63,421 nucleotides of DNA, filler included, from Stramenopiles sp. TOSAG23-6 (GCA_900128565.1; 17 parts of 17 records of this genome joined end to end with filler, not necessarily neighbours in it); one strand, 5' to 3'; positions 3,758-63,421 are shown, numbered from the whole stretch's first letter. Made by a program: numbers and translations. The notes: generated from the sequence alone by a model not told the origin.

Positions 3758-3809
3758 ACAAAATTTCGTACGAAAAAAAAATCGAATTTGAAAAAAAAAT
3801 AAAACATAC
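3758..3809 (-). other. Family intron, truncated by contig edge
   Basis: GAT|GTATGTTTTA..CAAATTCGA..CGTACGAAATTTTGT on the minus strand. Confidence 0.75.
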
Positions 3810-4539
3810 ATCGCTATCTTCTAAAAACAGTTTTAATTCACTGAGATCTATACCATCCCCATCAGTATCCATTTCTTCAAGTATTTTATACCCATTTCCA
3901 CCATCTTTTTCATATATTTTCATAGCAGTTTTTAATAACAGAATACTATGCATTTTGGAAAAATATTTCAAAAAAAAAATTAAATTTGTTAGGTACAACA
4001 TTTCGTACGAAAAAAAAATCGAATTTGAAAAAAAGCTCTCGAGCATCGAATTCATCTGCAGCTGTATCAGCAATAAGTTTTATTACTAGAATACCACCCG
4101 AAAGCATCATGCATAGGGCAACACGAAGGGTCTTTGGAGTCTCATCTTTCCAAAATTCCATCACCCAAATAAACTTGATAAATTTACCTATTAGAAACAA
4201 TACCCCAGCATAGAAACCAATATCCTTCCATGCTTTTTGTATGAACCAATGCCACATTGCTGCTTTACCTGGACGATGTACATGTTTTGACCATATTAAT
4301 AAATCATTCATTGTAAGAGCACTACCTTCTTCTCGTGGAATTTCATCGTATATTTGCTTTTGTAATGAACGTGAGATACTGACACCACTCTCCGACAATA
4401 ATTGTTCAATCATATTTAACGCCTCAGCTTCACTAATACCGCCCACTTTTCTTTTTAAATCAGTCAAAGCGGGATTTAATGTGTATTGTTTTGATATAGT
4501 GGCAATCGGTGCCACTTTTGCAGACTTAGTATCCGACAT
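3810..4539 (-). CDS. EF-hand-like membrane protein, partial (exons 4539-4045, 3947-3810)
   Basis: Two hydrophobic segments, then EMDTDGDGIDLSELKLFL; exons join in frame across intron 3948-4044. Confidence 0.45.
3948..4044 (-). other. Family intron, putative GC...AT (97 nt)
   Basis: Family core and AAAATGCAT end; GAT|GC donor gives in-frame EFD|SILL; donor is atypical. Confidence 0.5.
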
Positions 4540-4879
4540 GGCGTGAATCGACCCGTCAACGGGTAAATGTGAGTATATAATATTACGTATATTTAGTATC
4601 AAGAAACAGTCAGTTACACTTACTAAAGAATGCAAAGGAAAGTTCTTTGAACCAAAAACCCCCGAAAACAGATAAATTCCCAAATTACCGTAAAAAAACT
4701 CCACGACGACACGAAATCTCAGATTTAATTTTCAATTCAAATGACAAAAAAAAATTAAAAAAATTCATTCCATTTTGTATCATCGATAAATCAAATTGCG
4801 ATGCTTTTCCGACTAATTTACGTCTAATTTACCATAGAGATCATGCACAAATGATCCAACGAACAGAAAACTGAAGATT

Positions 4880-5913
4880 ATGGAGGATAACCAGATATCG
4901 CCAAATAAGCAGGACACTTCAATACATACTTTATATGAGGGGGTTTTACAAAAACTTGGTCAGCGTGGCAAAATGTGGATGAAACGTCAATTTGTGTTGT
5001 TAAGTGACGGTTCTTTTTTTTCTTGCAAAGTTGGCGTAAAACGCTACGATCCTTCAAATGGATCTTCACCAATTAAGTCATTCAATATTTTGAAATGTTT
5101 GATTAACAATAATTCGAATGAATTAAATCAAACGTCAAGCCGAATCGCCACTCGCATATATTCTATCACCATTGTGGCATCAGACGGACGTTGTCTAAAA
5201 CTTGGGTCTCTTGACCCAGCTGTTCTTGAAAAGTGGCTTGAAATATTGCATCTCACAAAGTTTCAGTTACAACAAAAAGAGAAACATAAAAAAATGGAAC
5301 GAATACTGAAGCTTCCAATTGGTCATACTGATGCTCAAGCTTTCCATGTACGTTTTATATAAATTTCTAATTTAATTTTTTTTTCATACGAAATTTCGTA
5401 CCTAACGATTTTTTTTTGTAAATGTTTTTTTTCACAATCCATAGCAAATCATCTGATAGAAAATCAGAGGGTATACATACAACGAACGAAATTTTTCTTT
5501 GGGACGAACAATGGCAAGCATCTCGTGGAACGTCTAGCACATATCCCATTTCAGCATATGATGGTGTACTTGGTTTAGATTCTTCGATTCCTAGTTCTAT
5601 AAGAACTCGCATTTCAAAGTTAAAATTAGAATTTGAAGTACAAAAAAGTTTCGATAAATTCGTATTTCGTGTAGTAGAAAATCTATTTTATAGACCAGGT
5701 AGCGTAAAAATAACACCAGCACCGGAATGGTTTTTGACACGAAATTCACCAATACCTCAGCAAGGTCGTATGTTCTGCGTTGCTGGGATTCCTCTTAATA
5801 TTGCAGTATGTAGTCGACATGCTAAGCAATGTACGTTTTAAAAATTGAATTTCAAATTTATATATTTTTTTCATACGAAATTTCGTACCTAACAATTTTT
5901 TTTTTTTTTTACC

Positions 5914-5944
<31 letters not shown>

Positions 5945-7325
5945 TTTCACGAAACATTAAAGTTAGAGACTCGTGGAATTCGACTTCTTCGCGAAAATTT
6001 ACCTGAAATAGTTCGAGTCCCACTAACGTCACTTGTAAGTTGCTGTGGTATGACTATACTTGCAATGGCACCATTACCGCTGGATAATAATCCTATGCTA
6101 CTTGTTGGTGCTGTTGTGAGCGCACCAACTCCAGATCGAGTATATTTTCATCATGAATTTTTTACCTAATTTTTGTTTCGTACGAAATGTTGTACCTAAC
6201 AAATTTAAGTTTTTTTTTGAATATTTTTCACAATACGAGTGACAATTGTAAAATCAAAATGTATGTTTTATTTTTTTTTTTAAACAAAAAAATCGAATTT
6301 TTTTTCGTACGAAATGTTGTACCTAACAAATTTTAGTTTTTTTTTGAAATATTTTTCCAAACTACATTTCCCTACACTGACTCTGATTTTAAAAAGCATC
6401 TACCGGACACTTTATCTCTTACTTGTAACCCTTATCCAAGGATTCTTGGTATGACGAAGGCCCAACAATTAAAACCAATAATGGGCTCTGATGTAGAATG
6501 GAAACTGGACATAACAGGTACTAATCCAGTTTATACAACAAAGACTGCGAAGTATGGTGATTTATTCATAGAATGGGGAGGCGTAGAAAATCCCTTTTGG
6601 ATTTTTCGATCAGGGGCAATGGTGTATATGTATAATGCGTCGAAGACAATTCAGGATATGATTCATTTTTCCCAAGAGCAAGAACCGACGATGCCAAGTG
6701 ATTGGCTTCCAATAAAGAATAAAATAACAATTTCTGGCGAACTTGGCAAATTAAGTCAATGGGAACCGGAAAAACAATTCAAGTGTTTCATTTTACAAGA
6801 AGAGCGACAAAATTTAACTTTAAAAAAATTTGATTTGGTTCGTTCGGGCTTACCTTTGGTCAATGGAACATATACGAGATATAGACCCGACGACGATGAT
6901 GATAAAGTTATATACGTTCAAGAAACACCTCATAATTTGTACAATATTTTTAAATATGAAGATGATGGAGATTTTAAGGAAGGCATGTGGATTCTTCGAC
7001 ACACTGCTGAGGAAACCGGAAAAGAATATTGGGTTTTTTTCGCTAAAGTAGGAGACAAAGCGGACTGGATAACATCTCAAACGAAATGGTATTCGTATTC
7101 AGATGCTCCATTTGATATACCATCTATGCGCATCGATGGAGTGAAGGTAGCAAAACCAAATTGTTTCATGAATAAAAGTTATTACATTGCACCGGAAATA
7201 CAAGCAAGTTCAGCAATAACAGATGCAACAGAAGGAGAAACTTCATCAGAAATTGTAGGATTTTCTGTCAATGGGCTCAATCATGAATTGAATGGTGAAT
7301 ATGAAAAATCCGCAGAGGAAGATAT
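4880..7325 (+). CDS. PH-domain plus Clu/TIF31-like domain protein, 3' partial (exons 4880-5347, 5443-5830, 5958-6139, 6239-6260, 6368-7325)
   Basis: YEGVLQKLG..WMKRQFVL..EKWLEIL (PH); spliced HAKQLKLETRG..VPLTSLV..ILAMAPLP resembles Clu; all five exons join in frame. Confidence 0.65.
5348..5442 (+). other. Family intron GT...AT (95 nt)
   Basis: TCCAT|GTACGT...CACAATCCAT|AGC; using the AG at 5443-5444 would frameshift into a stop. Confidence 0.85.
5831..5957 (+). other. Family intron GT...AT (127 nt)
   Basis: CAAT|GTACGT...GAAACAT|TA restores the Clu-like frame. Confidence 0.8.
6140..6238 (+). other. Family intron GT...GA (99 nt)
   Basis: TCGA|GTATAT...CACAATACGA|GTG; direct repeat CGAGT; the AG alternative gives an immediate TGA. 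Confidence 0.75.
6261..6367 (+). other. Family intron GT...AT (107 nt)
   Basis: AAAT|GTATGT...ACTACAT|TT joins in frame to ORF 6451. Confidence 0.8.
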
Positions 7326-7409
7326 GTATGTTTTATTTATTTTTTTTTTTTTTGTATGATTTTTTTTTCGTACGGAATTTTGTACCTAACAATTTTAGTT
7401 TTTTTTTTT
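7326..7409 (+). other. Family intron, truncated by contig edge
   Basis: TAT|GTATGTTTTA...CGTACGGAATTTTGTACCTAAC. Confidence 0.75.
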
Positions 7410-7510
7410 NNNNNNNNNNNNNNNNNNNNNNNNNNNNNNNNNNNNNNNNNNNNTTAATTAATTAANNNNNNNNNNNNNNNNNNNNNNNNNNNNNNNNNNN
7501 NNNNNNNNNT

Positions 7511-9653
7511 TGTGGTGGGATTGATATAGCAAATTGGGAAATAGATGATAAAAAAATTCGTAATGTTCGTGTATGTTTTATATGAATTTCTAATTGATTT
7601 TTTTGTTTTGGTTTTCATACGAAATTTCATACCTAACAAATTTAAGTTTTTTTTTTTGAAATATTTTTTCACAATTCGTGCTGGTGTTGAAAGTGCTTTA
7701 AGTTTTGCCAGTTCATATATTGGAATTGGAGGATTTCGTGATCGAAGAAATCATGGCCAATCTCAAGAATATATTCATAATGAAATTAAATATAGGATTT
7801 TAGTATTAAGACCATTTGTCATTATAAATATGAAACGTTTTGATGAAGATAATGATGAAAATGTTGAAAGACAAAAGAATTCTCTTGATACAAAATATCA
7901 AAAACATCAAAAACATCAAAAACATCAAAAACATCAAAAAACAAATGATAATAATTCTGTAAAAAGACAAAATACACCTATACAATATAAAAATCATAAA
8001 CATCAAAAACATCAAAAATTATCTGCAGTGATCACATCTGTACCAAATTTCTTACTTAATGCTTTAGTCGTTCAGTTACGTGATGGTGAAATTTCTTGTG
8101 AAGTTGAAAGTGAATCATTTATTATTGAACCATCTCGTAAAAGTTTTTTGTACTTACTTTTATTACCTAAAGAGAAAAATGAAAACAAAATGCCAATGTG
8201 GTTAAAAAATAATTTTTCTAGACAATTTCGTTGTGTCGAATTCGATTGGACAAATCAAAAAAACCCTAACTCTAAAACAGTAAACCCTAACCCTACAAAT
8301 TCTGAACACTCTACTGTTATTGCAACAGACAATATATCAATACAACAAACTGTACCTACATTGAATATCCATACATCTAACCCTAACCCTAATGATTCTA
8401 TACAGGATGATAAAAAACATAAAAATACTACAGAAAATGAATTTATCAATTTAAATTTTGATCAGTATAAATATATACTAGGTATTGGTGGTATTGGTGG
8501 AACCCTAGACACTCTAGAACAAAATGATACAAAAAATAGTACAAAAATTTCAAAAATGTCTAAAAATATTAAAAAAATGTGGCACAGTACAAGTTTCAAA
8601 GCATTAATAAGTCGACAACGAAGACGGAACCCTAACCCTAACAACTCTTCTTCTACTAAATATTCTACAAAAAATACAAATTTTGATGTGTCAAATGTTA
8701 ATCAATTTCAAAAAACACAAAATTCTCACAATCCTAAAAACCCTAAAAACCCTAAAAACCCTAAAAGAAAAACACAAATTGTATCGCGTTCAAATAGTTT
8801 GAGATTTCGTGATTTCCCAAGACAATTATCAAATACAAATTGTTTGAATTACAACCAAGCAGATAAAAAATCTGTTATTGAAATTTGGAAAATGAACAAT
8901 GTAATTAATGCAGATACATATTATTCATTATATGGATTAGATAATTCATGTTCTTGGGCTGCCGTTGCTCTTGTTCCAGTCATCTCAGAGTATACTATCG
9001 ACAACACGAATTCTAAAAAAAATAGCAACACGAATTCTAAAAAAGATGGACATTCATTTATTCATTTTCCTTATACTGAATGTTGTACTACAATGACAAA
9101 TGAAAAGAATCAAAGTTCTATAATCATTCAAAAAGATACATGTACGTTGATTTTAAAATGTATTTTTAAAATGTATTTTTAAAATGTATTTTTAAAATGT
9201 ATTTTTGTTTATTTTTGTGTCTAATTTGTATTTTTGAAATGCATTATTCAATAATTGTAGTATATATTCCATTTCATAAGTAAATTCTATACCTAACAAA
9301 ATATGTTTTTTTAAAATGACATATTTTTCCAAAATACATGTACACCTATCCATCGAAATTCAACAAAACTTCTAAAGAAAATATCTGCTGTCAAATCTAT
9401 TATGAAACTTTTGGATCATCACCAGAGAAAAAATAGTCACAAACCTGCTCGTGGAGAACAACGTGTGAAAAAAGTGATTTCTATACAGCGAATTAATACA
9501 AGAGACAGTTTTGTATCAACAAGTGAAAATGAATTAATTGAAGACACTAACCCTAACCCTATTGATTCAATTGGAAAATCAATAAATATAAACGACACTC
9601 CTACGTGGGCAAAAACGTTACGACATCGTTGGAACGAACCTGAAAACCTCTAA
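7511..9653 (+). CDS. Hypothetical low-complexity protein, 5' partial (exons 7511-7570, 7680-9141, 9340-9653)
   Basis: Exons join in frame; KHQ, NPK and NPNP repeats; no domain recognised. Confidence 0.55.
7571..7679 (+). other. Family intron GT...GT (109 nt)
   Basis: TTCGT|GTATGT...CACAATTCGT|GCT; direct repeat TTCGTG; in-frame RNVR|AGVE. Confidence 0.75.
9142..9339 (+). other. Family intron GT...AT (198 nt, with internal TTTTAAAATGTAT repeats)
   Basis: ATACAT|GTAC at both junctions; joins in frame to ORF 9402. Confidence 0.8.
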
Positions 9654-11350: not shown

Positions 11351-13096
11351 ATTGAGGATTCATCCTCCTGTTGTGTAGAGACAGAAGAAGGAAGATTCAT
11401 CTCTGAATTGATCATACATTTCATACCAAATTGTGGTACTAATGATGAATTTATTTGTTTCATTTTTTCACACCAAAACGAATGAATTTTGGAAAAGTAT
11501 TTCAAAAAAAAATTTGTTAGGTAAAAAATTTCGTACGAAAAAAAATTGGAATTTGAAAAAAAATAAAACATACATACCATTCCATCGGAAGTAAATACCA
11601 TACTGTACCTACTTTCGTAAAGCTTGATTTATTCATTATACTTTGGATGGGTTTAAAATATTGTAAGCGACATATATTGTGAAAAAATATTTCAAAAATT
11701 TGATTTTTTTTGTTAGGTACGAAATTTCGTACAAAAAAATAAATAAATTTGAAATTCATGATGAAAACGTACATAACGACGACAGAAAACTACTAGACCA
11801 ATCATTCATAACTCTACGAATATCATTAATACCTGGCCACTGCTCTAGTGTCAATACTAAATGCATGATCCCTTGATTTACTACATCAGTTCCATGAATC
11901 ATATGCAATTTCTTGATTAATTTTTGATAATTATTTGTATTTTGATTTTCTTTATTATGTATTCCCTTCAAAACATTAGCAATAGGAATCATAAGTCGAC
12001 CTCTTTCCCTAGCTACAGTTGCACAGAATTTCCTTGCATTGTCTTTGCTATGCAAGAAATCAAAAATTATTACCTCAAAAAGATGTTCGAATATAGACCA
12101 ATATTCTTTGTTTGGATCTATTGTGACACATTTTCGAAGCATACTCGCAAACGTAAGAGCTCCTGAAGTTGCAGACGCTGATGCTGATCCAATTTGTTTT
12201 GGGTTAGGGTTTTGCTCTTTTTTAGAGACATTTTCATCTAACAATACAAAAGAATCCTCTGCTATCACTGGAGAGATCAAACGTCCAGCCCAACACCAAG
12301 CCCAGTCTATTGCAATATAAGAAAGTTGTACACTACACTCATAGTTCACTGTATCAGAGGGTTCTAGTTTTAGACAGAGAGGGAACTCTGAGGTTATTTT
12401 TGCAATTACTTCTTTTGATTTCCATTTATGGTAAGGAAATTTCGGAGATTTTCGACACAAAGAGAAACCTGTGGATATATCATCTATTAAACGATGTCGC
12501 ACAAATGACCAGAGTATGGGTGCAACAGAAAGACATTCCATGTTGAAATTATTAATAGTTGGTGCAGGCTTTGTGCCTATACCAATCTTCTCAGTTTGAT
12601 TCTCTGAGGTGTTTGATAGTTTATTCACTATCGAAGATTTTAGACGAAGGATTAGTAACAAGCATTCCAAACGAAGAGGAACATCCTCTTCTATTGTACG
12701 ACTACCCCGACATATGGATTTAGGCACCAGAGTACGCAACTGATCAGTTCCGAAATGTATGAAGAACTCAGTAGGGGAAATTGTTGCAGATTTCTGGAGC
12801 ACTCGCTTACCGAGCATATGTGCATATGGTCGAACACCCTGATTACCATCAGCATTACGAGTAGGTGATGGCCTTTTACCCGAGGTTACATTGCTGGTAT
12901 CACTATCATCAGCAGCGTCATCATATTCACAACTACTCTTACTTTCATTTTCAGTACACCAAGCAACTGCCGAACTAAGGAGCACCGGTTCAATTAGTTG
13001 TGACGACGTGCAACGACTCAGAAAAAGGTCAACAAGATGTTCTACAACATTCGGCTCATGCGAAGAGCGCAACAATCCTTCAAAAATTTTGTCCAT
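11351..13096 (-). CDS. Protein with DUSP-like motif, 3' partial (exons 13096-11773, 11671-11574, 11481-11351)
   Basis: Spliced GTVWYLLPMEWY|SFWCEK resembles DUSP (WYLV..W...W); exons in frame. Confidence 0.5.
11482..11573 (-). other. Family intron GT...AT (92 nt)
   Basis: GTAT|GTATGT...CCAAAATTCAT|TCG; in frame. Confidence 0.8.
11672..11772 (-). other. Family intron GT...AT (101 nt)
   Basis: TTAT|GTACGT...CACAATATAT|GT; direct repeat TATGT; in frame. Confidence 0.8.
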
Positions 13097-13577: not shown

Positions 13578-13614
13578 GGTTAAAAACCAGAGCCAAAAAC
13601 ATGAAGCCCAGAAA

Positions 13615-14698
13615 ATGAAAACACGTATAAATCAGTTGATCCTCGAAAATGAAGTGAAAAGTAAAAAGATTAAACAACTGTTAACCATTGAGTCCAGCTT
13701 CAAAACAGCAAAGGTGACGAATACCACCAAAATAGAAATACTTCGTGGAAAAATGCGAAGACTTCTTCGTGAACAAGAAGCAAAGAATTCTCTTCTAAAG
13801 GTATTAATCGCTCGATATGGAAAAAAACTAAAGCGATGTCGGACGTCACTGAAAAAAAAATCAGAAGGGAAAAAAAGGAAGTCTAGTTGCAAAAAAAACC
13901 CATCTAAAGATAAAAGTAAATGCAATATTGTCGTAGTCGGTGAAGTTGAAATAAATTTGCGCGATAAAATAAAAGAGCTTTTGAATGAGAAATCTAAAAG
14001 ACTCGAGCGTCTCAATGAGTTAGAGAAGAAATTACTCGTAGCAAAAAAAACTGACGCATCAACCATCTCTACGACTCACTCTCCACAGCGTGAAACAAAT
14101 TCAAAAAAAGAGCAATGGAAAAAATTACAAAAACATCCAATATTTGGTCGGTATTTTAGAATGCTTAAAATGGGAATTCCTTTGAATTCGGTAAAACAAA
14201 AAATGATTCTTGACGGATTGAATAAAGAAATGATTCCCATGTTGGATGATCCTGAGTCATGTACGTTTTATTTTTTTTTCAAATTCGAAGTTTTTTTTTC
14301 GTACGAAATTTTGTACCTAACGATTTTTTTAATTAAAAAAAAAAATATTTTTCCAAAATACATGGTTTGGGCCTTCTGGAACGATCTCACCTCTTCATTA
14401 TGATCCATATCATAATCTATTATGCCAAGTTGTTGGTTACAAATATATTCGTTTAATTGATAGTCGATACACACACAAATTATATAGAAGAGATCCCCCA
14501 CGGCATAATAATTCTAAAATTGATCTTGATAAATATGAAATTTCAAATTTTCCAGATTTTGAAAATACACCAATGACACATTGCCTTCTTGGACCTGGTG
14601 AAATGCTATATATACCACGTCACTGTTGGCATTATGTGAGATCTGTCACTGGTTCATTTAGTGTCAGTTATTGGTGGGGAGGAGAAAAGGATTTATAA
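13615..14698 (+). CDS. Coiled-coil plus CCDC53/formin-type motif joined to the C-terminal part of a JMJD5/KDM8-like JmjC domain (exons 13615-14260, 14364-14698; possibly chimeric)
   Basis: RYFRMLKMGIP..VKQKM..DGL motif; second exon WFGPSGTISPLHYDPYHNLLCQVVGYKYIRL..LGPGEMLYIP..WHYVRS. Confidence 0.6.
14261..14363 (+). other. Family intron GT...AT (103 nt)
   Basis: TCAT|GTACGT...AAAATACAT|GG; T+GG rebuilds the conserved Trp of WFGP. Confidence 0.8.
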
Positions 14699-15008
14699 AG
14701 AAAATAACATTGAGTATCTTAATTATTTTTTTTAATATTTTGGATAATTACTACGAAAATAATTATAATTTCTATAAAGAGTGTAATAAAATATAAATAT
14801 TTTATTTTTTGTAAGGTATTTTTTTATATTCAGAAATTAAAAATATGAGACAAATATTTCAATTTGTTGTCTTCTTCAAACACTCTTTTTTATGTGAACT
14901 CTTCCAATNNNNNNNNNNNNNNNNNNNNNNNNNNNNNNNNNNNNNNNNNNNNTTAATTAATTAANNNNNNNNNNNNNNNNNNNNNNNNNNNNNNNNNNNN
15001 NNNNNNNN

Positions 15009-15055
<47 letters not shown>

Positions 15056-15080
15056 ACTGGTTCGATCCCGGTTCGCGGCG
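15009..15080 (+). tRNA. tRNA-Phe(GAA), first base lost in the gap
   Basis: TAGCTCAGTTGGGAGAGC D arm, TCAGA-CTGAAGA-TCTGA anticodon arm, GGTTCGATCC T loop. Confidence 0.95.
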
Positions 15081-15485: not shown

Positions 15486-16199
15486 TCAATTTCTATTTTG
15501 TTCTGCTCTAACCCAATTGTAAAATTCTGGGTCTTCTTCATGACTAGTCTTTATATCTATCAAATTCTGAATATTGTCTTTACCATTTTGTTGTTGATTT
15601 GAATATTCATTTAACAGTTTGGAAAATTTATCTGATTTAATAACACACATTTTATCTGATTGGGGTTTTATACGGCCAAGGAAACATGTATTTTGGAAAA
15701 ATATTTGAAAAAAATCTTTAAGTACAAAATTTCGTACGAAAAAAAAATCGAATTTGAAAAAAAAATAAAACATACAGCATTTAGCAAAAGACGTTGCAAA
15801 AGTTTTTGACTCACGCAAAAATTCATGTTTCATGTAGAAATATTTCGAGCAATATGCTTTGATTGAAGTTTTAATTTCATATTCTTGTCCATATTTTAGT
15901 TCTCTGATATATCTACTTTGTATACTAGCTACTACAGCTGAACTAGGTCCAATAGATGTCGTGTCTCTTCGATTCTTTAGAATTAGTTCAAAGGCAGAGA
16001 TTTTTACAAGGTAGTCCCAACGTGCTTGTTCAGCTGCTTCTAAATATCGTGCATTATTCATGTGACCAAACATGTCTATATCAAAAAAACGCACTTTGAA
16101 TAAACGTGTAGTGCTCTCAAGTGGTGATATTTTTCGCTGCCAAAGGGCACGCAGTGTAGTCATAACAGTGCGACCATAATATGAGAAAATATATCCCAT
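15486..16199 (-). CDS. Hot-dog fold thioesterase, THEM6/4HBT-like (exons 16199-15776, 15685-15486)
   Basis: DIDMFGHMNNARYL motif; RYIRELKYGQ. Confidence 0.85.
   Translation of the reverse strand: MGYIFSYYGRTVMTTLRALWQRKISPLESTTRLFKVRFFDIDMFGHMNNARYLEAAEQARWDYLVKISAFELILKNRRDTTSIGPSSAVVASIQSRYIRELKYGQEYEIKTSIKAYCSKYFYMKHEFLRESKTFATSFAKCCMFYFFFKFDFFFVRNFVLKDFFQIFFQNTCFLGRIKPQSDKMCVIKSDKFSKLLNEYSNQQQNGKDNIQNLIDIKTSHEEDPEFYNWVRAEQNRN
15686..15775 (-). other. Family intron GT...AT (90 nt, in frame and stop-free)
   Basis: TGCT|GTATGT...AAAATACAT|GT; moving both boundaries 2 nt upstream creates TGA, so this copy fixes the register. Confidence 0.8.
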
Positions 16200-16575
16200 T
16201 TGAAACAAAAATACAATATATTTTACCAGCAAATTATGCAATTATCTCGTGTTGAAAGTCATGGATTGAAAAAGAAATGGTGATTCTATTCGAGGTGGCG
16301 TGGACAAGTGAGTAAAGCTACTACGGTACTCGTGACTAGTGAGTACCAGTATAGGACCTACTAGGTAGCAAAAGAATCGCAAAAATCACAAAAACCCTAA
16401 CCCTAATTAATTAGTAGAGATCGCGCATGCAATGACATTGTCAAGTCAAGTCAAGTGAAGTCAAGTCATCTGATCTGCATCGCATGACCCCGGCCACATT
16501 GTCCACTCCACACACCACGTTCTCTTCTCTTATCATTGCGTCTAGAACAATTTCAATTTCTGGTAGGTCTTTACA

Positions 16576-17223
16576 ATGTCAGAGTCTAAAACTGCATCCC
16601 CCATGGCAAAACTTTTGTTAATGAAGCAATTAAAAGAGTTGAGTTCAGATCCTCCTGAGGGTGTTGAAGTTTGGTTAGAGGATGATGCTGACTTGTTCAA
16701 GTGGAGTTGCAGGTATGTTACAATGTTTAAGTTCACCGTGTCTCCCGTTTTTTCGTCAACATATTTTTCATACTCTAAAACATTATATATATATATATAT
16801 TCTTACTTGTATACAATATTAACATGTATATTAAACACGTACAGTATTATTGGTCCACCTGGTACACCTTATGAGGGTGGAATATTTACTTGTTTGCTTG
16901 AATTCCCGCCAGATTTCCCAAATATGCCTCCAAAAATGATTTTTCAGACCAACATTTGGCACCCAAATATCTACAGTGACGGAAGAGTATGTATTAGCAT
17001 ATTACACCCACCAGGAACAGACTCGCATAATCCTGAGGAGCTTGCAGAAGAACGCTGGCGTCCAATTCTTGGTGTAGAAGCTATCCTAGTATCTGTAATA
17101 TCTATGCTTGCTGACCCAAATGATAATTCGCCAGCCAACATAGATGCAGCTGTTCAGTGGAGAAAGGATCGTGCTGGATATAATAAAGAAGTCAAAAAGT
17201 GCGTTGAAAAATCATTATGTTGA
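16576..17223 (+). CDS. Ubiquitin-conjugating enzyme E2, Ubc7/UBE2G/Cdc34-like (exons 16576-16712, 16845-17223)
   Basis: GPPGTPYEGG, HPNIYSDGRVCISILH, acidic loop insertion, SPANIDAA. Confidence 0.95.
   Translation: MSESKTASPMAKLLLMKQLKELSSDPPEGVEVWLEDDADLFKWSCRYVTMFKFTVSPVFSSTYFSYSKTLYIYIYSYLYTILTCILNTYSIIGPPGTPYEGGIFTCLLEFPPDFPNMPPKMIFQTNIWHPNIYSDGRVCISILHPPGTDSHNPEELAEERWRPILGVEAILVSVISMLADPNDNSPANIDAAVQWRKDRAGYNKEVKKCVEKSLC
16713..16844 (+). other. Canonical GT-AG intron (132 nt), not of the family
   Basis: AG|GTATGT...TACAG|T; removal gives WSCSIIGPP as expected for an E2. Confidence 0.9.
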
Positions 17224-17533: not shown

Positions 17534-18652
17534 TCAGCGTTTAACAAGTCGACCATACTTTTCTTTCCCCTTTTTACCTCGGCGTTGTATTCTTACTTCA
17601 TCAGGTGCTACTTCTTCTTCTTCGCTATCAGAGTACTTCACAGCAATGTCTCCATCATCACAAATCTCAATAACAGTTGCACGTATTGTGAAAAAATATT
17701 TCAAAAAAAAATCGTTAGGTACGAAATTCCGTATGAAAAAATTAAGTTAGAAATTCATATAAAACATACATGCACGCATCTCTGCTTCTTGTCTTTTGTG
17801 ATGAGAGTTTCTCATATTTTTTAAACTAACTTTCATTAAAGTCTGGTGCACAGCAGTTCTATTTGCTTCATTTTCTCTCACATTTGCCAATTTTAATTCC
17901 ATATTTTTCTCCTCCAACTTAATCATATAGCATTCCCACTTATTCCACACACGCCATTTCTCTGTACGAATCCTTCTACTTACATAAAAAAACATAACCA
18001 AAAGAGCCCCTCGTAATTCTAATTGGGATAGTGTCAGACCCATAGCCTCTGCTAACTTTGTAGCTTTTTGTAGCTGTTGTTGGTGTTTCTCCTTCATTGT
18101 ACCCACTCTAAGTTGAAAAAGACTCTCTTGCTCTGCTAAAATTCGAGATGTGTTTTCCTTATATTTTTGTTCTTGGAATTCCAACTGTTTTAAATATTCT
18201 TTTTTATTGTTCATAAAACCACGTGCATTCTTCTCTTTTTGAAGCTGAAAACGTTCTTTCCATATTGCAGATTTCATTGTGTCATATTTACCGAGAATAT
18301 TTTCAGATTGAAAGTCACTAACGACACTATTATGAGGATTATGAGGTAACGCAGTAGGATTTTGTTGAGATGCAGTATGATTTTGTTGAGATGCAGTATG
18401 AATTTGATGAGATGCAGTGTGTTTTTGTTGAGATGCAGTGTGCTTTTGATAAGATGCAGTGTGCATTTGATGTAATTTCATGTGCCTTTTTTGATGAAAG
18501 GGAATGGGTTTGGGTTTTAATGACTTGCCTTCTCCTTCCGAATCTTTCTCTCTCCTCCAACCACGTGCACCATAATCTTTCCAATGCGACGTGTGTGAAG
18601 GTATAGGTTCCGGTGGAGGTGAAGGTATTGGCGATGTTGATGCTGGTGACAT
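17534..18652 (-). CDS. Coiled-coil hypothetical protein with 21-nt repeats (exons 18652-17774, 17680-17534)
   Basis: Long ORF with HTASQQK repeats; last exon ATVIEICDDGDIAVKYSD is Tudor-like. Confidence 0.5.
17681..17773 (-). other. Family intron GC...GT (93 nt)
   Basis: CGT|GCATGTATGT...CACAATACGT|GCA; 6-nt direct repeat CGTGCA; the GC donor, not the GT 4 nt downstream, keeps the frame. Confidence 0.6.
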
Positions 18653-18945: not shown

Positions 18946-19017
18946 TTCTTGTTAGTTTAATGGATAGAATTAGCGACTCCGGATCGCTGGATCCGGGTTC
19001 GACTCCCGGGCAGGACT
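18946..19017 (+). tRNA. tRNA-Arg(CCG)
   Basis: AGCGA-CTCCGGA-TCGCT anticodon arm; CCGGG-TTCGACT-CCCGG T arm; T:C mismatch at the first acceptor pair. Confidence 0.85.
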
Positions 19018-19838: not shown

Positions 19839-20035
19839 TTCTTTGTTACATATTCTATACAAATATATAGATAAATACATGTGTGTAATTTACAAAAAAT
19901 ATTAAAAATTGAAATTTAATTTAAATAAGTTTACAACTAGGCTTTTTTTTCAATTTCGAATTTATTTTCGTACGGAATTTTGTACCTAACAAATTTAAGT
20001 TTTTTTTTTTTTTAGGACTCTGAGATTTGTAAAAG

Positions 20036-46794: not shown

Positions 46795-47313
46795 TGTGAC
46801 GTCAGATGAGGCAGTACTAGTACCACAAGGACATATTGGTGAAGAACCATCAGAACAAAGAGTCTCAGATTCAATTCCATTTACCCCACAAAGAGGCTTC
46901 AGTCCATCATAACAGACTGTAAGTGCACCATCTTATGAAGGTTGTCCTTTATTTTATAACAAGAAATTAGATTATATTGGATGGTTCCAGTTTTTTACAC
47001 CATATGCTACATCAACTAAAATAGGTCTGGAGAAATGAAATTGAGCAATCAAACACCTCATTTATATGTTTGCTTATAGTTTCAACAAATACTAACATTA
47101 GGACAGCTTATTTCAGAGTAAATCAAAGTAGTCTCTTACAATCATTTTCCCTATGTTTCAATTTTTTACTCATGCAGTTGATCCAACAAAAAATCAAAAT
47201 CTCAACAGAACAACCAAATATATTAGGAGACATGTTGATAGAGATTTCTTTGCCAAAAACACAATGTTTTTAAGAAGACACTGACTTCAGGTAACCTAAG
47301 ACAATCAAGCATT

Positions 47314-48178
47314 ATGATTCGCTTTCGATCATTTCAAGATATGTATGTTGAGGTCATTTCATACCTAACCAGACATAATCTTTCAAACCACCCTTTGTGG
47401 AGAAATGCATTTTTTATGGCATGCATTGTACACAACAGAAGAGCTTGTGGATTTTCCAAATCTCCAATTATAGTAAATTTTCCACGCAGTGAAGGTGGTG
47501 AAGGTGGTGAAGGTGATGGTGGACATTTGGGGGAGCCTAAAGATGTAACTATGGCAAGTTTTGAGCAGTACTGGGCATTACCACAAAATGTGCATTTGGT
47601 TGATACCCGAATTTTTACAAAGGTTTTGGGCTCTCTGCATGGATATAGATGACAATAAAGCCTGTACTCAAACACTAAATGAAATCAAGGATTTGTATGA
47701 TAATTGGCATGATGATATGATTGCTTCTACGGAGGAACCCTATTGCAAAATTTTATTCGGCCTGGTAATGGGTCATCCTTTTGGTGATCATTTACATACT
47801 GAATCAGTTGCTCAGTCGATGCAAGATAAAACTAAACGAAAAAAAATATATGTCCCGCATCCTGGTTTTGAAGTCGTTCGAGAACATGTTCAAGAACACG
47901 TTCAAGAACACATTCAAGAACGCGTTCAAGAAGGAGAAGTCATTCAAGAAGTAGAAGCAGAAGTAGACGTCGTAGTCGTCGTAGTCGTTGCCGGTGAATA
48001 TGTCAACGCTGAACAATTGCAATATCTACGCCGCATATGTAATGACAACAAAATGCCAGATGTAGGTGAACATGTATATGTCTACTGGCCTCAACATGTA
48101 GCAAAACATGTTAACAATGGTATCGACATCTCGTTTCCAGAGGGGTTTTACCAAGCAACTGTTGAATTCCATGCATAA
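47314..48178 (+). CDS. Hypothetical protein in two overlapping ORFs (possible pseudogene)
   Basis: ORFs 47314-47652 and 47561-48178 in different frames; C-terminal VGEHVYVYWP..FYQATV is Tudor-like. Confidence 0.35.
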
Positions 48179-48629
48179 CTGTAATTGTTAAATACAAACA
48201 ACTGTACAAGAATTGGCGCCATGAAATAATCAACAAGATGGATTTGTAGTAAGTAAATTAGACAAAAGTTTTAAAAATGTTGTACAAAAAGCAAACAAAT
48301 TAGGCAAGGATAATAAAAATTGGGAATATATTCAACTGACGAAAATTTGATAAACTGCAACAAATTAGATACAAATAAAACAACACTGTTGAGAAAAGAA
48401 TTTTCGGAGAATCTTTTAACTGAAAAAGTTGCAAATAAAAAAATTCTACTAAAATAAAAGGAAAAAAAATATGCAAAAAAAATCATGACAGATTAAAACT
48501 CTTGTCACACTTGCAACTGCAGCAAAAAGNNNNNNNNNNNNNNNNNNNNNNNNNNNNNNNNNNNNNNNNNNNNTTAATTAATTAANNNNNNNNNNNNNNN
48601 NNNNNNNNNNNNNNNNNNNNNNNNNNNNN

Positions 48630-50810
48630 AATGTCGGTGATAATGGACGGGAAAGTAATTCTTCTCTGAACTTTAACTCTAAATTATGAGAACTTTCAAT
48701 AGTTCTGTTTGTATTTTTTATAAACTCTTCCTGTAATTTTAGAAATACATCATCCTCATTTTTATTTGAATCGTCGACGCTTTCAATTGGTAACAACGGT
48801 AAACTTTTTCGAGCAGATTTCCAAGAGTTAATGATATCATTGTATATATCATCCAAATTCATTTTTTCAAGAACTGTCTTGCGGGTAATTTTTGATGTTA
48901 ATCCTAACGACACCTCTTCAAACTTTTCGAATAGTTTTACATCAGGTTTTGTTAGTTTTCCTGCGATATGAAGTTCAGGGAAATTATTCATATTAAGTTC
49001 TACAAATTGGGATATTGTGAATGGTGGAATAAATTTTTTATCATATCCTTTATCCCATTCGTAATCTTTACCGCTAATTAAATGAGACCCAGGAAATTGA
49101 ACATGAGGGTAGTGTTGAATTTCATTATACCACCATGAGTATGTCATCATCGGCTGATGTAGGATTGTCAAGTCTGTTCTAAATCCTTCACAAAGTGTCA
49201 AGTAGCGGAGAACTGTCCATTGTAAGTCGTAAGTAGTTATTAGAAGGGAACCCTGAGGAATATGCGAAACAAGAGCTTTTCCATATTCTTCAATATAATG
49301 AGCATTGCTCATATCTTGCTCTGGGTACCAGTAGTCTGTTTGGTATTTAATCATGTATGCACCGACTCCAGCAATGATGAAGAGATAGAAGTACCAAATT
49401 TTGATTTTCAAAGATTCCTTCGATATCCATGAAGATAAGCTAAATTTGCACAGAATATATTCAATTCTACAAACGTCAAAAAGTACATGAAGCCAAGCTG
49501 AAGCTCCGACCCCAAATGTAATGAAGATAATAACATTTGGTTGCATCCAAAATCTCATATGAACGCCAAACAACAACCCTTGGGACAGTGGGATATTAGA
49601 TAATGTATGGAAAATTATCAAGTAAAATGCCCAGGTGAATAATAGAATTTGTCCAATGGAATTTTGTGCTTTTGATAATTGTTTTTTTTGGGTGCTTTTA
49701 GATTCCCCTTTACGACCCCTGTCACGTAGTAATGTTTTTATTGAAGTGATTCTTTTTGAAACTACTTTTTTCCTATTAATATATGGACTATGAGGGATTT
49801 CTCCCATACCAAACTGCCACATAACCTTGAAACCTACAAAGATAAAAGGAATACACAATGGTGAAGGCAACTCTCGTGTAAATAGATCAGAGAAATAATT
49901 AAATAACCTCTCCATTAAACCTGCGACCTTTTCATTTGCACGATTTCCAGAATATAACTGAAGCGTTCCATAATCAGCACGGCGGAAATGATGGAAAAAA
50001 CCACACGTATTGAGAAAAAATATTTTTTTTGTAAAATTTGTTAGGTACGAAATTTCGTAGGAAAAAAAATAAATTCGAAATTCATAATGAAAACGTACTT
50101 ATTGTTCCCGTATTTCCCCAACTAGATGGATTAGGAAAATATTTTTCAGCGACTATTAGATATAAGTATGGAGTTAAACCAAGAAGATAGTAACCAGCTA
50201 GTCGCCAAAACAAAGCTTTAGTAAGTACCCGTTGATGAAACAAAATCCAAAGAAACCAGGAAATTAAAGGTATCTGAAACAGTACTGTTGTATGTTGGTT
50301 ACACATTGCCAAACCACAACAAAATGAACCAAAAATAGCAACATTCGGATCATTTTTCTTTGAAAATAAACATGTAAGATAGACAATCAAGGCTGCAAAA
50401 AAATTATTCATTGCAAACACTTCACTTGATATTGCGTACAACCAGACAAGTGGGGATATTGAATAGAGAATACCAGCCAGGGCGGCGACGACAATATTAC
50501 CTCGTCTTGTATCACGGGTTAATAAATCAACACTTAGGAATACAAAAACACCAGCTAATGAGGCAAAACAACATGACATCATATTTGATCGCCACGCTGG
50601 AGTACCACCTAACCATTCCATTCGCTTTGTAGCTATGTTGGATAACAATATAAATAGTGGATATCCTGGAGGATGAGCAACACCAAGGCTACATGACTCT
50701 GCAACTAATTCACCACTATCACCTCCAGCAACAGTCGGATACACTGTCTGTATGTATATTGACATTGGTATTGCAAACACAAGTGCAGAAACTGTTAGTA
50801 AAAGCATCAT
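48630..50810 (-). CDS. TMEM260: TMEM260/DUF2723 protein O-mannosyltransferase-like, 3' partial (exons 50810-50099, 50004-48630)
   Basis: GGDSGEL..GVAHPPGYPLF, EVFAMNN, CNQHT, spliced WGNTGTI|SGFFHHFRRADYGTLQL, RFWMQ. Confidence 0.92.
50005..50098 (-). other. Family intron GT...GT (94 nt)
   Basis: ATAA|GTACGT...CTCAATACGT|GT; restores the WG(x6)GF spacing of TMEM260. Confidence 0.85.
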
Positions 50811-51047
50811 AGATGCTTTTCCCGGTTTCGCTTGATCTTTCCTTTTTGAAAAGCTAAAGAGAGAGAGAAGAAGTCGCTGCTGTTGCTTGTTCCTAAAGAT
50901 TTTTTGAACGATTTTGAATTTTGAGATTTATTTCGTGTTTTTTGAAGTTTGAAACTCGAACTGAACTCGCTCCTTCAGCTCTTATTTTATTTTTAAAACT
51001 TTTTTTATCTCCTCGATCTTTCGCTTTCGAGTGAGTGAGTGTGACTA

Positions 51048-54227: not shown

Positions 54228-54311
54228 GCAGTTGTACCAAAGCCTGGTTAATGGGTCAGACTTGAAATCTGATGGGCTATGCCCTCGCAGGTTCGAATCC
54301 TGTCAACTGCG
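54228..54311 (+). tRNA. tRNA-Ser(TGA)
   Basis: GCAGTTG/CAACTGC acceptor, TCAGA-CTTGAAA-TCTGA anticodon arm, long variable arm, GGTTCGAATCC. Confidence 0.95.
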
Positions 54312-59601: not shown

Positions 59602-59700
59602 TTATTTTGTATATAATTTCAAAGTATTTGCAAGACGTGACAAAGCAATATCAATATCATCTTCACTAGCTGTTGAATATGATGCTCTTATATACGGTGA
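59602..59700 (-). CDS. C-terminus of a class I aminotransferase (AADAT-like)
   Basis: SPYIRASYSTASEDDIDIALSRLANTLK then stop. Confidence 0.65.
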   Translation of the reverse strand, partial: SPYIRASYSTASEDDIDIALSRLANTLKLYTK

Positions 59701-59921
59701 NNNNNNNNNNNNNNNNNNNNNNNNNNNNNNNNNNNNNNNNNNNNTTAATTAATTAANNNNNNNNNNNNNNNNNNNNNNNNNNNNNNNNNNNNNNNNNNNN
59801 ATAAACAATACAATCCTGTGTAAATAATGACCGTAAAAATACGATGCTCAAGAAGAAATGAAAAAAATGATCTCATCTGAGGAGCGATATATAGGGTACC
59901 GGGTATCGGATTTTAAAAAAT

Positions 59922-61208: not shown

Positions 61209-61531
61209 AGATAATATATATGACCTAACTGATTAAAGGTATTTTCAGGGTACTATCTGCTGGTATCGGTTGTGTTAAGATGAGGTTAATGTTATTGCTT
61301 TGAATCTTCTGGAACCAAGTTGATTAACTACGGGTAGGTAGTGCTGAGAGGCTCAGTGAGAGCTGAGCTTTTTGACACTGACTTGTTGCCACGTGGCACA
61401 CGCAAAAAAAACGGACGAAATCAAAACCAACCCAACGACGTATCCAAAATCTAAGAACGGTTGTGTGAACCGTATCCAAAAATTCTACCCAAAGAGGAAT
61501 TCTTAAATCTTAAAGAGCAATCATTACAACC

Positions 61532-62179
61532 ATGGAGCAGCATGAGCCACTTCTTAAAACAAATAATAAAAAAAGTATTAACATGAGACGTAAGTATACT
61601 TTGTTGACATCGTTTGCCTTTGTAGGTGTTGCACTGGTTCTTCAAGTTGTTGGCAACAGCGTAGATTCTTATTCCGTCGTATCTGTAATACGAAGAGACG
61701 TTCAGAAGGCTGAAATCATCATAAGTTTTGATAGACTCAGTATTGATGCAAATAATTCGAAAACGTCGAAAACATATACTTCAATCGAAAAGCAGTACAA
61801 GGATGCAGAAAGAGGGGCAAAAAAACTGAAAACCGCAGGTCAACTTCTTGTGACGTTTTCTACAATTTCCAGTTTTTTTCTTGCAATGACTGCACTATAC
61901 GAAGTCCTAAAATTTTTGGAATTTCAATATCACTTGAAAACAAGATATCAACATACAATTCTTTTTCTCTATGGATCAGTAATAATGACATCAGTTGGTC
62001 TTCTCTGTTGGATTATTCTTGAACACACTGGGACTCAACAGTTAATTCACGGACTAAATAATACAGGACAATTGTTCCCAGGTGGAGATACAAAGAAGAA
62101 ATACGGAGCATCTGTGTATCTGCTTATCTCTACATCTATCGCTCAACTTTTTGCAGCGATTGCACTTAAGCATCTATAA
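61532..62179 (+). CDS. Four-TM claudin-like membrane protein
   Basis: Four hydrophobic segments; YGASVYL before the last. Confidence 0.5.
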   Translation: MEQHEPLLKTNNKKSINMRRKYTLLTSFAFVGVALVLQVVGNSVDSYSVVSVIRRDVQKAEIIISFDRLSIDANNSKTSKTYTSIEKQYKDAERGAKKLKTAGQLLVTFSTISSFFLAMTALYEVLKFLEFQYHLKTRYQHTILFLYGSVIMTSVGLLCWIILEHTGTQQLIHGLNNTGQLFPGGDTKKKYGASVYLLISTSIAQLFAAIALKHL

Positions 62180-62290
62180 TTTAATAAATTGATTTGTTTT
62201 TTATAAGTTTGTTTAATTTTCAATGATCAAAAATAATTACACAAAAATACGTAACGATATTGATATCCCGATATACTCTTCTCAATATAT

Positions 62291-63337
62291 TTACGCCGAA
62301 GTATCGAGGACTGTTTTTTCGTCCACGACTTCTTCGATAATTTCCGTAGTAATTTCATACAAAGAGTCATCGCGATCATCCCAGCCCAACAATTCAACAT
62401 ATTGTTCTCGTTTTGTCTCATTTTCATCACGGCGTTTCTTGAGAAGTTTGCGGAATTCGTCTCGAAGTTTAATAGCATTTCGTGCATCTTCCGCTTGCCT
62501 AGAATTAGTAAGAAATTTGTCTTGATCTTTAAATCTACGAACATGTAAATGAAGATTTTTCAACACTTCTTTCCGTTCTTTTTCCGTGAGAATAGACTGA
62601 GGACGAGGTCTCCACTCAAATTGATAGAAATTTTGTTTTTGCATCCTGTACAATGGTTGTCCTTGGAAGCTCCAGAGTGCATATCCATTTTCAAGTTGGT
62701 GTCTCATAGATGCAGCACCAAACATAGGCTGTGATACAACAGAAGCCACAAAGCGGCCAGATGGATCCCAACAAATATCTGTACACATAAAATGCTCTAC
62801 TGATGACGATAACTGTTCATTTGCTTCCAAATCAAAAAATTCAAGAATTCCATTATGAGGAGATGCTTGACCTGCAAGCACACAATGACGACCTTGAGGA
62901 GACCAATACAACTTATTACATGGACGATTTTCTAACGTAAAAAGTTTCTCAAATTTGCATTTGGATACATCGGTTGTAGCTCCCATCGAATACACGCTTA
63001 CATTTGATGAAGTAGCCGAAAGAGAATGAACAACACCACATTTTACACCCTGTGGCTCCCAGGCGAAATGAGCAACATTTTCTCTAGTTTCAAAATGCTC
63101 AATGGGGATGTCTTTCATGTTCATACGGAATAATTCAAAATTAGTAAATTGTGTTTTTTTTGTCTTACTGTGCCTAGTGACTTGAACACACATAAAATGC
63201 CCTTGAGGGTGCCATATAGTCTTCACATCAGTTACTTGGTACAAATTTTTCTTTCGAATAATTTTACGACTTGGAATTTCGATTAATGTCACGCAGGCTG
63301 GTAAATTTTGAGCCTCAGGAGACCAAGTACACAAAAT
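62291..63337 (-). CDS. EIF3B: Translation initiation factor eIF3b, last exon; preceded by a family intron (63338-63421)
   Basis: FAWEP.G, WSPQGR, EHFMCTDI.WDPSGRFV, ENGY.LWSFQG, QFEWRPRP; intron ends AAAATACAT|ATT. Confidence 0.95.
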   Translation of the reverse strand: MLCTWSPEAQNLPACVTLIEIPSRKIIRKKNLYQVTDVKTIWHPQGHFMCVQVTRHSKTKKTQFTNFELFRMNMKDIPIEHFETRENVAHFAWEPQGVKCGVVHSLSATSSNVSVYSMGATTDVSKCKFEKLFTLENRPCNKLYWSPQGRHCVLAGQASPHNGILEFFDLEANEQLSSSVEHFMCTDICWDPSGRFVASVVSQPMFGAASMRHQLENGYALWSFQGQPLYRMQKQNFYQFEWRPRPQSILTEKERKEVLKNLHLHVRRFKDQDKFLTNSRQAEDARNAIKLRDEFRKLLKKRRDENETKREQYVELLGWDDRDDSLYEITTEIIEEVVDEKTVLDTSA

Positions 63338-63421
63338 ATGTATTTTGGAAAAATATTTCAAAAAAACGTTAGGTACAAAATTTCGTACTAAAAATAAATT
63401 CGAAATTGAAAAAAAATAAAA

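Follow-up and report, generated by a model that had tools for sequence, protein, structure and literature searches.

A transposon-like introner family in a MAST-3 marine stramenopile whose copies are probably removed without a terminal AG

The AG dinucleotide at the 3′ end of introns is among the most constant rules of nuclear splicing, and the lineages that break it (euglenids, Amoebophrya and fritillarid tunicates) do so with messy, heterogeneous introns. The nonconventional introns of euglenids have no AG and neither a conserved GT 5′ site nor a branch motif; their ends pair, bringing the exons together, and an origin from miniature inverted-repeat transposable elements (MITEs) has been proposed for them. 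The non-canonical introns of tunicates, which Henriet is said to have reported from Fritillaria in 2019, are diverse at both ends and tied to modification of U2AF and of small nuclear RNAs (snRNAs). Here, we analyse a stretch of 63,421 nucleotides from Stramenopiles sp. TOSAG23-6 (GCA_900128565.1), referred to as the window, in which short repeated elements interrupt unrelated genes. These elements form a MITE-like introner family that underwent an insertion burst in a MAST-3 marine stramenopile, the source organism. The pieces whose removal restores the interrupted genes mostly begin with GT and never end in AG, and their removal by the major spliceosome, at a non-AG site defined by structure or position, is in our view the best reading of the data, with a probability of about 60%. 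Like the euglenid introns, the elements lack AG and possess pairing ends, but here the GT 5′ site and the branch motif are both conserved.

As a kind, non-canonical introners are already known. Introner elements, the transposon-derived introns of Micromonas, Aureococcus, dinoflagellates and others (PMC9860276, PMC12130899), have in common with the present family the many near-identical short copies occurring as introns of unrelated genes, a target-site duplication, short inverted ends, a 5′ splice site of their own and a removal that restores the coding sequence. However, the described ones are GY...AG introns, at least in the parts of these two articles available to us, with an AG that comes from the element or from the duplication, whereas here the duplication provides AT, GT, TT or GA, and AG in 0 of 22 copies. 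Both surveys, according to the same parts, begin with annotated introns, and one of them drops families whose splice sites are unfamiliar unless RNA alignments back them (PMC9860276, PMC12130899). A family such as this one would therefore escape them. In the alveolate Amoebophrya, more than 60% of the introns are non-canonical, a subset of them being introner elements, and U1 snRNA is given as not found; these introners display inverted repeats of 8–20 nt between their ends and direct repeats of 3–5 nt over their borders (PMC7789003, here and below in the sections available to us). The stramenopile family is alike in its repeated non-GT-AG introns, its pairing ends, its direct repeats that let the borders slide and its MITE-like layout. 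Nevertheless, Amoebophrya shows no dominant pair of dinucleotides and no conserved 5′ or branch signal, whereas here GT...AT dominates, GTAYGT and CTAAC are kept, the inverted ends comprise 4–8 of 8 pairing positions instead of 8–20 nt, and a single dominant family stands beside a GT-AG intron. Non-canonical introns are also described in Fritillaria and other tunicates (PMC13326754), and the likeness, judging from the available portion of that article, lies in a large share of introns that escape the GT/AG rule yet are processed by the major spliceosome, as we propose here, and in a proposed transposon origin; in the present case, the departure concerns the 3′ end alone and is confined to one element family. 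Literature searches returned no description of this family or of unusual MAST-3 introns, and term look-ups in the main texts of PMC5778133, PMC12614181, PMC8163842 and bioRxiv 10.64898/2026.04.17.719054 found unusual introns unmentioned there. What is new here is the AT end derived from a duplication, the inverted ends that can pair, the coexisting GT-AG intron, and public gene models that translate the element.

The window does not represent one locus, as it consists of 17 contigs of approximately 3.65 kb each (G+C content 28–38%), joined by linkers of the form N44-TTAATTAATTAA-N44; the family copies come from about 16 unlinked contigs or loci. The 22-nt core of the element has 34 matches at three mismatches or fewer, versus 0 in each of 100 dinucleotide-preserving shuffles. 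A profile made from 13 clean copies and searched with nhmmer against the 61,903 non-N bases gave 53 hits, i.e. 49 loci after merging (approx. 0.8 per kb), with no hit on the contigs at 1-3657 and 44902-48529. The insertion family in unrelated genes put forward in an earlier note on this DNA is thus real. Single copies are 90–150 nt long, and a full copy presents, in this order, GTAYGTTTT, a T-rich stretch, the 16-nt internal palindrome GTACGAAATTTYGTAC, CTAAC (within a CCTAAC directly 3′ of the palindrome), a T run, GAAATATTTTT, CACAAT or CCAAAAT, AC and two last bases. All the shared parts listed in that note (GTAYGTTTT, a core ending in CCTAAC, and GAAATATTTTT-CACAAT/CCAAAAT-NNNN) were retrieved, and two subfamilies are visible, CATACG...CACAAT and CGTACG...CCAAAAT. 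Covariation in the internal palindrome was considered and dropped, since the variants are mismatches rather than compensatory changes.

Complete single copies could be defined in 22 cases, to which are added a compound copy of 288 nt, one further compound and about 10 copies cut by contig ends (table 1; minus-strand copies are named by their higher coordinate, e.g. 17769 for 17681..17769). All 22 lie in sense to the flanking long open reading frames (ORFs), as had been noted earlier, an outcome expected by chance with a probability of 2e-7, and antisense matches are core fragments of 30–45 nt only. This uniform orientation points to removal from RNA, not from DNA. The interrupted genes are unrelated and include BRO1, TMEM260, JmjC, SNF2, ProRS and a thioesterase. 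The copies start with GT in 20 of 22 cases and with AT in two, a GTAYGT-like start being found in 20. The motif CCTAA(C), a candidate branch site on the strength of its sequence, is present in 22/22 at 33–66 nt from the 3′ end and ranks with the most strongly conserved segments of the element. Of the 34 contig ends, seven fall on the edge of an nhmmer hit, and three more (7409, 37343 and 41072) are by eye in or beside a copy, indicating that the assembly tends to break in the element. Beyond the window, a core-pattern scan detected one locus in metagenome contigs, 0 in prokaryote genome contigs and 0 in viral contigs. This locus (L001, 2474-2578, minus strand), on an independent marine metagenome contig, is a full copy, ACAT/GTATGT...CACAATACAT/GG (slashes marking the borders here and below), which splits a lysine-rich ORF of no relation to the other genes; here, too, removal at the fixed offset used in the window restores the frame.

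Some copies depart from this anatomy. Those at 3948-4032 (minus strand) and 19946-20006 (plus strand) are without the first 11 nt or so, including GTAYGT, and share a common start point, TTTTTTTCAAATTCG; the former makes up the in-frame end of a 261-codon ORF, and the latter, located between a BolA gene and its neighbour, ends in ...TTTTAG. Antisense core fragments inside ORFs were observed at 42215-42300 (plus-strand hits in the minus-strand ORF 41855-42421) and at 39065-39096. The two tandem fragments at 42215-42300 are translated as a repeated SLGTE(F/C)STK, upstream of a WW domain, and such antisense fragments may be exonised remnants or excision footprints. In the compound copy 36515-36802, a 190-nt part ending in ...ACGT directly abuts a second part starting with GTATTT; its removal may occur in one step, or by re-splicing at the regenerated 5′ site.

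The removed piece was delimited by a 5′ cut before GTAYGT and a 3′ cut at a fixed profile column, two bases past ...ATAC. At this fixed offset, the 22 complete single copies end in AT (16), GT (3), TT (2) or GA (1), and never in AG. The earlier note had tallied the ends of 27 complete copies: the absence of AG and the dominance of AT stand, while the number of definable copies falls to 22. The reading frame is restored in 19 of 21 independent tests, versus one-third expected by chance (P=8e-8), with 18 copies passing singly and the copies 6140 and 6261 jointly, via a 22-nt mini-exon (6239-6260) suggested by their joint frame. A single AT..AC removal of 224 nt (6142-6365) is frame-compatible at this place, but was set aside, as each element there has its own direct repeat.

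As the frame test locates a junction modulo 3 only, conserved junctions were examined via homologues. Exon 1 of the BRO1 gene aligns to the solved Bro1 domains of HD-PTP through its final residue, and the joined product, ...SFLAAAH/YWQSKVEASAAKQNGSGYG..., is gapless versus five homologues (which read FWQ, YWR, FWK, YWQ and YWQ after the junction); the sole nearby in-frame AG, at +9, would remove this conserved Y/F-W-Q/R/K. The joined TMEM260 product, SSWGNTGTI-S-GFFHHFRRADYGT, is gapless versus seven homologues, with no AG within 47 nt. In the JmjC gene, the junction W of WFGPSGTISPLHYDP matches INAWFGPQGTISPLHQDP of solved JMJD5 chains, and use of the nearest in-frame AG, at +66, would delete the conserved WFGP...H.D block. 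These are the junctions predicted beforehand (AAAH/YWQS, WGNTGTI/SGF and WFGP, respectively), and the copy said to border a ProRS exon likewise finds its place, its donor following AQKGD, aligned to AQTGD of an intronless relative that is 64% identical (P0002). Other predictions fared less well. For SNF2, the exon downstream of 36515-36802 begins at position 4-5 of the SNF2-rel_dom profile, and use of the AG at 36794 would create a TAA junction codon; the proposed junction is no more than consistent with these Pfam coordinates. The claim of four NIPA introns is weak, one exon matching Mg_trans_NIPA at E=0.005, below the family cut-off. At the thioesterase copy 15686..15775, the matches in Pfam and PDB extend as far as the junction and no further. 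A protein search with the HMG-box exon adjoining copy 27820 gave no homologue match, and neither the second exon of BRO1 (56 aa) nor that of the thioesterase (65 aa) retrieved anything usable from PDB. Altogether, frames and, at three to four junctions, homology make it very probable that the elements are removed at these borders.

The final bases of the removed pieces appear to come from the insertion itself. Indeed, in 14 of the 22 copies the removed piece finishes with the same 2 nt that stand before the donor (p=0.006; mean of 9.8 under permutation), and in nine the agreement extends to 3 nt (p=0.006; mean of 5.2). The donor is preceded by AT in 13/22 versus 10% in the background, and rare ends are mirrored in the flank (CGA twice at 6140, CGT twice at 7571, TAT twice at 11772), the direct repeats at the borders measuring 2–5 nt. 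We read these repeats as a target-site duplication of 2–3 bp that favours (C)AT(G). The AT end would then be owing to the duplication, which supplies the final bases, and the removed piece, i.e. the element plus the downstream duplicate, would leave the pre-insertion gene restored. The element ends GTAY.../...RTAC are complementary and thus form short terminal inverted repeats, which, together with the near-palindromic CAT/G, can make a short helix across both cut sites. In the terminal register, 5.6 of 8 positions pair on average (range 4–8), and G+1:C-3 is paired in the minimum-energy fold of 9/22 copies; to judge from the letters, a T/A run can lengthen this helix past a bulged G. Target-site duplications and terminal inverted repeats together bear out the introner burst that had been surmised.

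Conventional splicing is also found in this genome. The E2 ubiquitin-conjugating gene contains a 132-nt intron (16713-16844), GTATGT...ATTAAC...TACAG, with exon 1 covering UQ_con 2-32, exon 2 covering 34-139, and AG/T as junction codon. Its 5′ hexamer is the same as that of the family, it has a TTAAC branch-like motif, and its contig (15009-18655) also carries the copies 15775 and 17769, so that AG-using splicing coexists with the family. The suggestion that the organism splices most of its introns independently of AG is accordingly retained in part: the removed pieces never end in AG, but ‘most’ holds for the window only, where an AG intron is found as well. A generic scan for more conventional GT-AG introns was too noisy and was dropped.

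Five seawater RNA runs contain 5–15% of the words sampled from a 10-kb stretch, and RNA contigs from four of these runs were matched to the contig 3758-7409. Element parts draw 798–896 contigs per run in three of the four runs, with a summed depth in the thousands, and all the RNA joints listed connect different element copies. Some of the element-bearing contigs, derived from other loci, show exon/GTACGTTTT borders, and one of 537 nt, from a polyA library, has a copy in its interior. A further polyA-RNA contig, 237 nt in length, agrees with the window over 6366-6475, and its divergence sets in no more than 2 nt from the predicted 3′ site; it was not callable as a spliced form, the 30 visible upstream letters being too diverged from the window exon. 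Taken as a whole, the RNA-library data reveal an abundant family that is represented in such libraries, but neither support nor refute splicing. One RNA-library contig displays a 9-nt insertion (three codons) at 7194, within a 340-codon exon, which is probably strain variation.

The mechanism that we favour can be set out as follows. The element would be a non-autonomous DNA-transposon relic of 90–150 nt, flanked by a duplication of 2–3 nt, mostly (C)AT, of which sense insertions alone would be retained in genes. The major spliceosome would remove it from the pre-mRNA by means of the element's own 5′ splice site and CTAAC branch site, and would take out exactly the element and the downstream duplicate, from /GTAYGT to ...ATAC-AT/. 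The position of exon ligation would be set not by an AG but by the 3′ terminus of the element, two bases past ...ATAC, beside the short helix formed by the inverted ends with the 5′ splice site region, and the last dinucleotide would be whatever the duplication supplies (AT, GT, TT or GA). A ruler counted from the branch site was rejected, as the distance varies between 33 and 66 nt. That an ordinary MAST-3 major spliceosome performs the second step at non-AG sites set by the helix geometry of the inverted ends and by the duplication is a more tentative proposal, to which we would give somewhat less than an even chance.

Several observations weigh against this removal by the major spliceosome. 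We know of no case in which this machinery ligates efficiently at AU, and the conventional intron of the same genome shows AG recognition to be intact. No RNA contig bridging an exon-exon junction was found (four runs, contig 3758-7409, where exon contigs are of 150–210 nt at depth 2–5), and either pre-mRNA or carry-over of DNA could account for the RNA contigs that bear the element. The copies 17769 and 27820 (2/22) misfit the fixed offset, and the pass of 42540 depends on tied upstream frames. The terminal helix is a short one, and in most cases the folding energy of the whole element does not improve on that of shuffles. Finally, because the two flanking bases are identical, the borders of 14/22 copies can slide by 2 nt to AT..AC with the mRNA unchanged.

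This last point opens a reading in which both true borders are placed 2 nt further upstream, /AT-GTAYGT...ATAC/, the major spliceosome acting through the compatibility of a first A with a last C, a combination that works in U2-type introns. We hold such a shift to be improbable, although it would agree with the excess of AT before GT described above, and with the ..AC at which the element itself ends in most copies. Copy 27820, whose first base is A, fits the frame only with an ..AC end, and 25536 (ATACGT) also permits AT..AC; a coupling of the first nucleotide to the last would be characteristic of the spliceosome, and these two copies are suggestive in this respect. Yet the likeness to U2-type AT-AC introns fails elsewhere. 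At 15775, the shifted removal gives a TGA in the thioesterase domain and leaves the downstream 65-codon ORF unused, and at TMEM260 it gives GTM-C-GFF, a worse fit to the homologues, which carry a hydrophobic residue and then S, than the unshifted GTI-S-GFF, which matches the two closest of them at S. The border dinucleotides differ in 8/22 copies, namely 15775, 17769, 27820, 33497, 35977, 41628, 42540 and 50098; the upstream one is CT, AA, AG, TT or AC in six of them, not AT, and the family hexamer, GTAYGT, begins at GT and is the 5′ splice-site hexamer of the E2 intron. From the unequal-border copies and this hexamer, we prefer GT..AT. A canonical AG might still be used, whether within the element, whose tail would then be translated, or further downstream, where part of the ORF would be skipped, and YAG does occur 9–13 nt after CTAAC in 8/22 copies, as do in-frame AGs at +9 (BRO1), +12 and +15 in three copies. 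However, the stretch from CCTAA to the 3′ cut is free of AG in 14/22 copies. Taken as the acceptor, the internal YAG of the remaining eight is in frame in two only, the first downstream AG of the 14 AG-less copies is in frame in five, and, over all 22 copies, the AG encountered first past the branch-like motif falls in frame in about 7–8, i.e. at chance level. Three conserved junctions, moreover, contradict the use of AG: BRO1 would lose YWQ, JmjC its WFGP...H.D block, and no AG is close to the junction of TMEM260, which is exact. Recourse to nearby AG sites, which the earlier note had named among the findings that would tell against it, is therefore rejected statistically, and by homology in BRO1 and JmjC, and we regard it as barely credible.

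Removal at a non-AG site could also do without a spliceosome, if the paired inverted ends guided it, in the manner put forward for euglenid nonconventional introns and considered for Amoebophrya introners, and GTAYGT and CTAAC were merely transposon sequence. The borders, situated inside the short palindromic helix of inverted ends and duplication, the lack of AG, and cuts that are fixed relative to the element ends rather than to the branch-like motif 33–66 nt away are all consistent with this possibility, and Amoebophrya introners share the layout, including the direct repeats over the borders (PMC7789003). We nevertheless consider it unlikely: the 5′ hexamer is the host's conventional site and is kept in 20/22 copies, CCTAA(C) is highly conserved, and a purely structural cut would need neither motif; in addition, the helix core is of 4–8 pairs and appears in the minimum-energy fold of 9/22. 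Minor-spliceosome (U12-type) introns, which tolerate GT-AT and AT-AC, with diverged U11, U12 and U6atac, come to mind owing to the resemblance of CCTAAC to the U12 branch consensus TCCTTAAC. However, the 5′ end is GTAYGTTTT, not RTATCCTT, and the adenosine of CCTAAC stands 33–66 nt from the 3′ end, whereas U12-type introns need a branch point at roughly 10–26 nt; this origin is very doubtful. The same low credit is given to the view that the elements are not removed at all (assembly or amplification artefacts, pseudogenes), or are removed from DNA rather than RNA. The assembly is admittedly fragmented, with contigs often breaking inside the element, and unspliced copies occur in the RNA libraries, but the element is also found, restoring the frame, in the independent metagenome contig, and RNA-library contigs that contain it number in the hundreds. 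Apart from the insertions, the genes concerned are intact, and they are conserved; the 22/22 sense orientation and frame result would be unexpected for artefacts or DNA-level excision.

Public annotation is affected by these elements. The 472-codon ProRS ORF and a public gene model (eukprot:GSMAST32.ASY1.ANO1.1775.1, P0001) are identical at 441/441 residues with a 24-residue gap in the model, which indicates that this model was made on the window sequence and assigns its source to MAST-3. The model (window 28462-29877) leaves out 24 conserved residues before running on into the element. A second model on the same sequence (P0271, window 48632-50927) skips GLTPYLYLIVAEKYFPNPSSWGNTGTI and translates the element instead. 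Thus, the published proteome is corrupted at these two loci. MAST-3 single-cell assemblies are credited with 2,694–3,289 genes in 19–21 Mb (PMC5778133, in the part available to us), and element misannotation may contribute to such low gene counts; functional inferences from such gene sets and from GT-AG-only pipelines would need revisiting.

If the major spliceosome does remove these elements, a DNA transposon becomes a precisely removable intron whenever it lands on the sense strand, whatever dinucleotide the duplication gives. Extrapolation from the density in the window, approximately 0.8 loci per kb, would put the genes dependent on this non-AG mode in the thousands, and MAST-3 catalogues would be widely truncated or corrupted. 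The family would constitute a clean exception to the AG rule, with a textbook 5′ splice site and branch motif, only the AG missing, beside a normal GT-AG intron, making the choice of the 3′ site testable in isolation. It would also show that a transposon target-site duplication can define a splice site, which bears on the origin of intron bursts.

Table 1. Element copies and the conventional control intron in the window (coordinates of the whole stretch; codon pairs give the lengths of the ORFs on both sides).
Feature	Coordinates	Strand	Remarks
Complete copy GT..AT, PH-domain gene	5348..5442	+	frame restored, ORFs 170/132 codons; AG 2 nt downstream out of frame
Complete copy GT..AT	5831..5957	+	frame restored, 136/69 codons
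Complete copy GT..GA, flank CGA = own last 3 nt	6140..6238	+	in frame only jointly with 6261-6367
Complete copy GT..AT	6261..6367	+	joint frame with 6140-6238; polyA-RNA contig stops matching at 6366
Complete copy GT..GT	7571..7679	+	frame restored into 500-codon ORF; 5-nt direct repeat TTCGT at both borders
Complete copy GT..AT	11482..11573	-	frame restored, 72/71 codons
Complete copy GT..AT, TAT repeated	11672..11772	-	frame restored, 445/50 codons
Complete copy GT..AT, JmjC (JMJD5-like) gene	14261..14363	+	junction codon T/GG = W of WFGPxGTISPLH
Complete copy GT..AT, thioesterase (4HBT_2) gene	15686..15775	-	frame restored, 155/65 codons; flank CT, not AT
Complete copy, fixed-offset removal out of frame	17681..17769	-	in frame only if cut falls 2 nt earlier (..AC) or 1 nt beyond
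Complete copy GTTTGT..AT	22840..22938	-	frame restored, 213/111 codons
Complete copy GT..AT	23516..23606	-	frame restored, 670/204 codons; no in-frame AG within 90 nt
Complete copy ATACGT..AT (or AT..AC if shifted by 2)	25434..25536	-	frame restored, 171/627 codons; ACAT at both borders
Complete copy starting ATATGT	27820..27938	+	fixed offset fails; ATATGT...ATAC/ATGGAG (end 27936, ..AC) fits frame
Complete copy GT..AT	33375..33497	-	frame restored, 31/160 codons
Complete copy GT..TT, SNF2 gene, N-terminal part	35977..36088	+	frame restored, 247/70 codons
Complete copy GTTTGT..AT	36228..36337	+	frame restored, 60/66 codons
Compound copy of 288 nt, three sub-elements, GT..AT	36515..36802	+	nhmmer 36553-36621, 36625-36705, 36744-36774
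Complete copy GT..AT, BRO1-domain gene	40790..40904	+	gapless joined product versus 5 homologues
Complete copy GT..AT	41496..41628	-	frame restored, 92/43 codons; weak Mg_trans_NIPA match in downstream exon
Complete copy GT..TT	41753..41874	-	frame restored, 182/103 codons
Complete copy GTAGGT..AT	42391..42540	-	frame-consistent; upstream frames tie at 20 codons each
Complete copy GT..GT, TMEM260-like gene	50005..50098	-	gapless versus 7 homologues; leftward border shift impossible
Copy cut by contig end	3758..3809	-	nhmmer profile positions 1-52
Copy cut by contig end	7326..7409	+	GTATGTTTT... plus core up to contig end
Copy cut by contig end	11261..11350	-	nhmmer positions 1-84
Complete copy 5 nt from contig end, ..AT	26036..26134	-	nhmmer positions 1-85
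Copy cut by contig end	26240..26292	-	nhmmer positions 1-54
Copy cut by contig end, ProRS gene	29812..29877	+	donor after ...AQKGD
3′ part of copy cut by contig end	33560..33613	-	nhmmer positions 49-99
Compound copy in SNF2 domain, ends 6 nt before contig end	37089..37337	+	nhmmer 37123-37225, 37264-37309
Copy cut by contig end, second BRO1 intron	41020..41072	+	GTATGTTTT...CGTACGAAATTTT at contig end
3′ part of copy upstream of eIF2A-domain exon	63338..63411	-	nhmmer positions 17-99; Pfam eIF2A
Control: conventional GTATGT...TACAG intron, non-family, E2 ubiquitin-conjugating gene	16713..16844	+	Pfam UQ_con coordinates

Among the other features of the window, approximately 25 scattered single N bases break the ORFs of one contig at 42604-44793 (2.2 kb), which suggests a low-quality or polymorphic consensus. 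Rfam matched no snRNA in the window and three tRNA genes only (15008-15080, 18946-19017 and 54228-54311), the first of which begins at the very edge of its contig. Short telomere-type runs (CCCTAA/TTAGGG) were observed inside contigs at 16385-16402, 22590-22620, 41355-41372, 42030-42070 and 32860-32875; such runs occupy an intron (41375-41211), intergenic DNA and a coding ORF (42030-42070).

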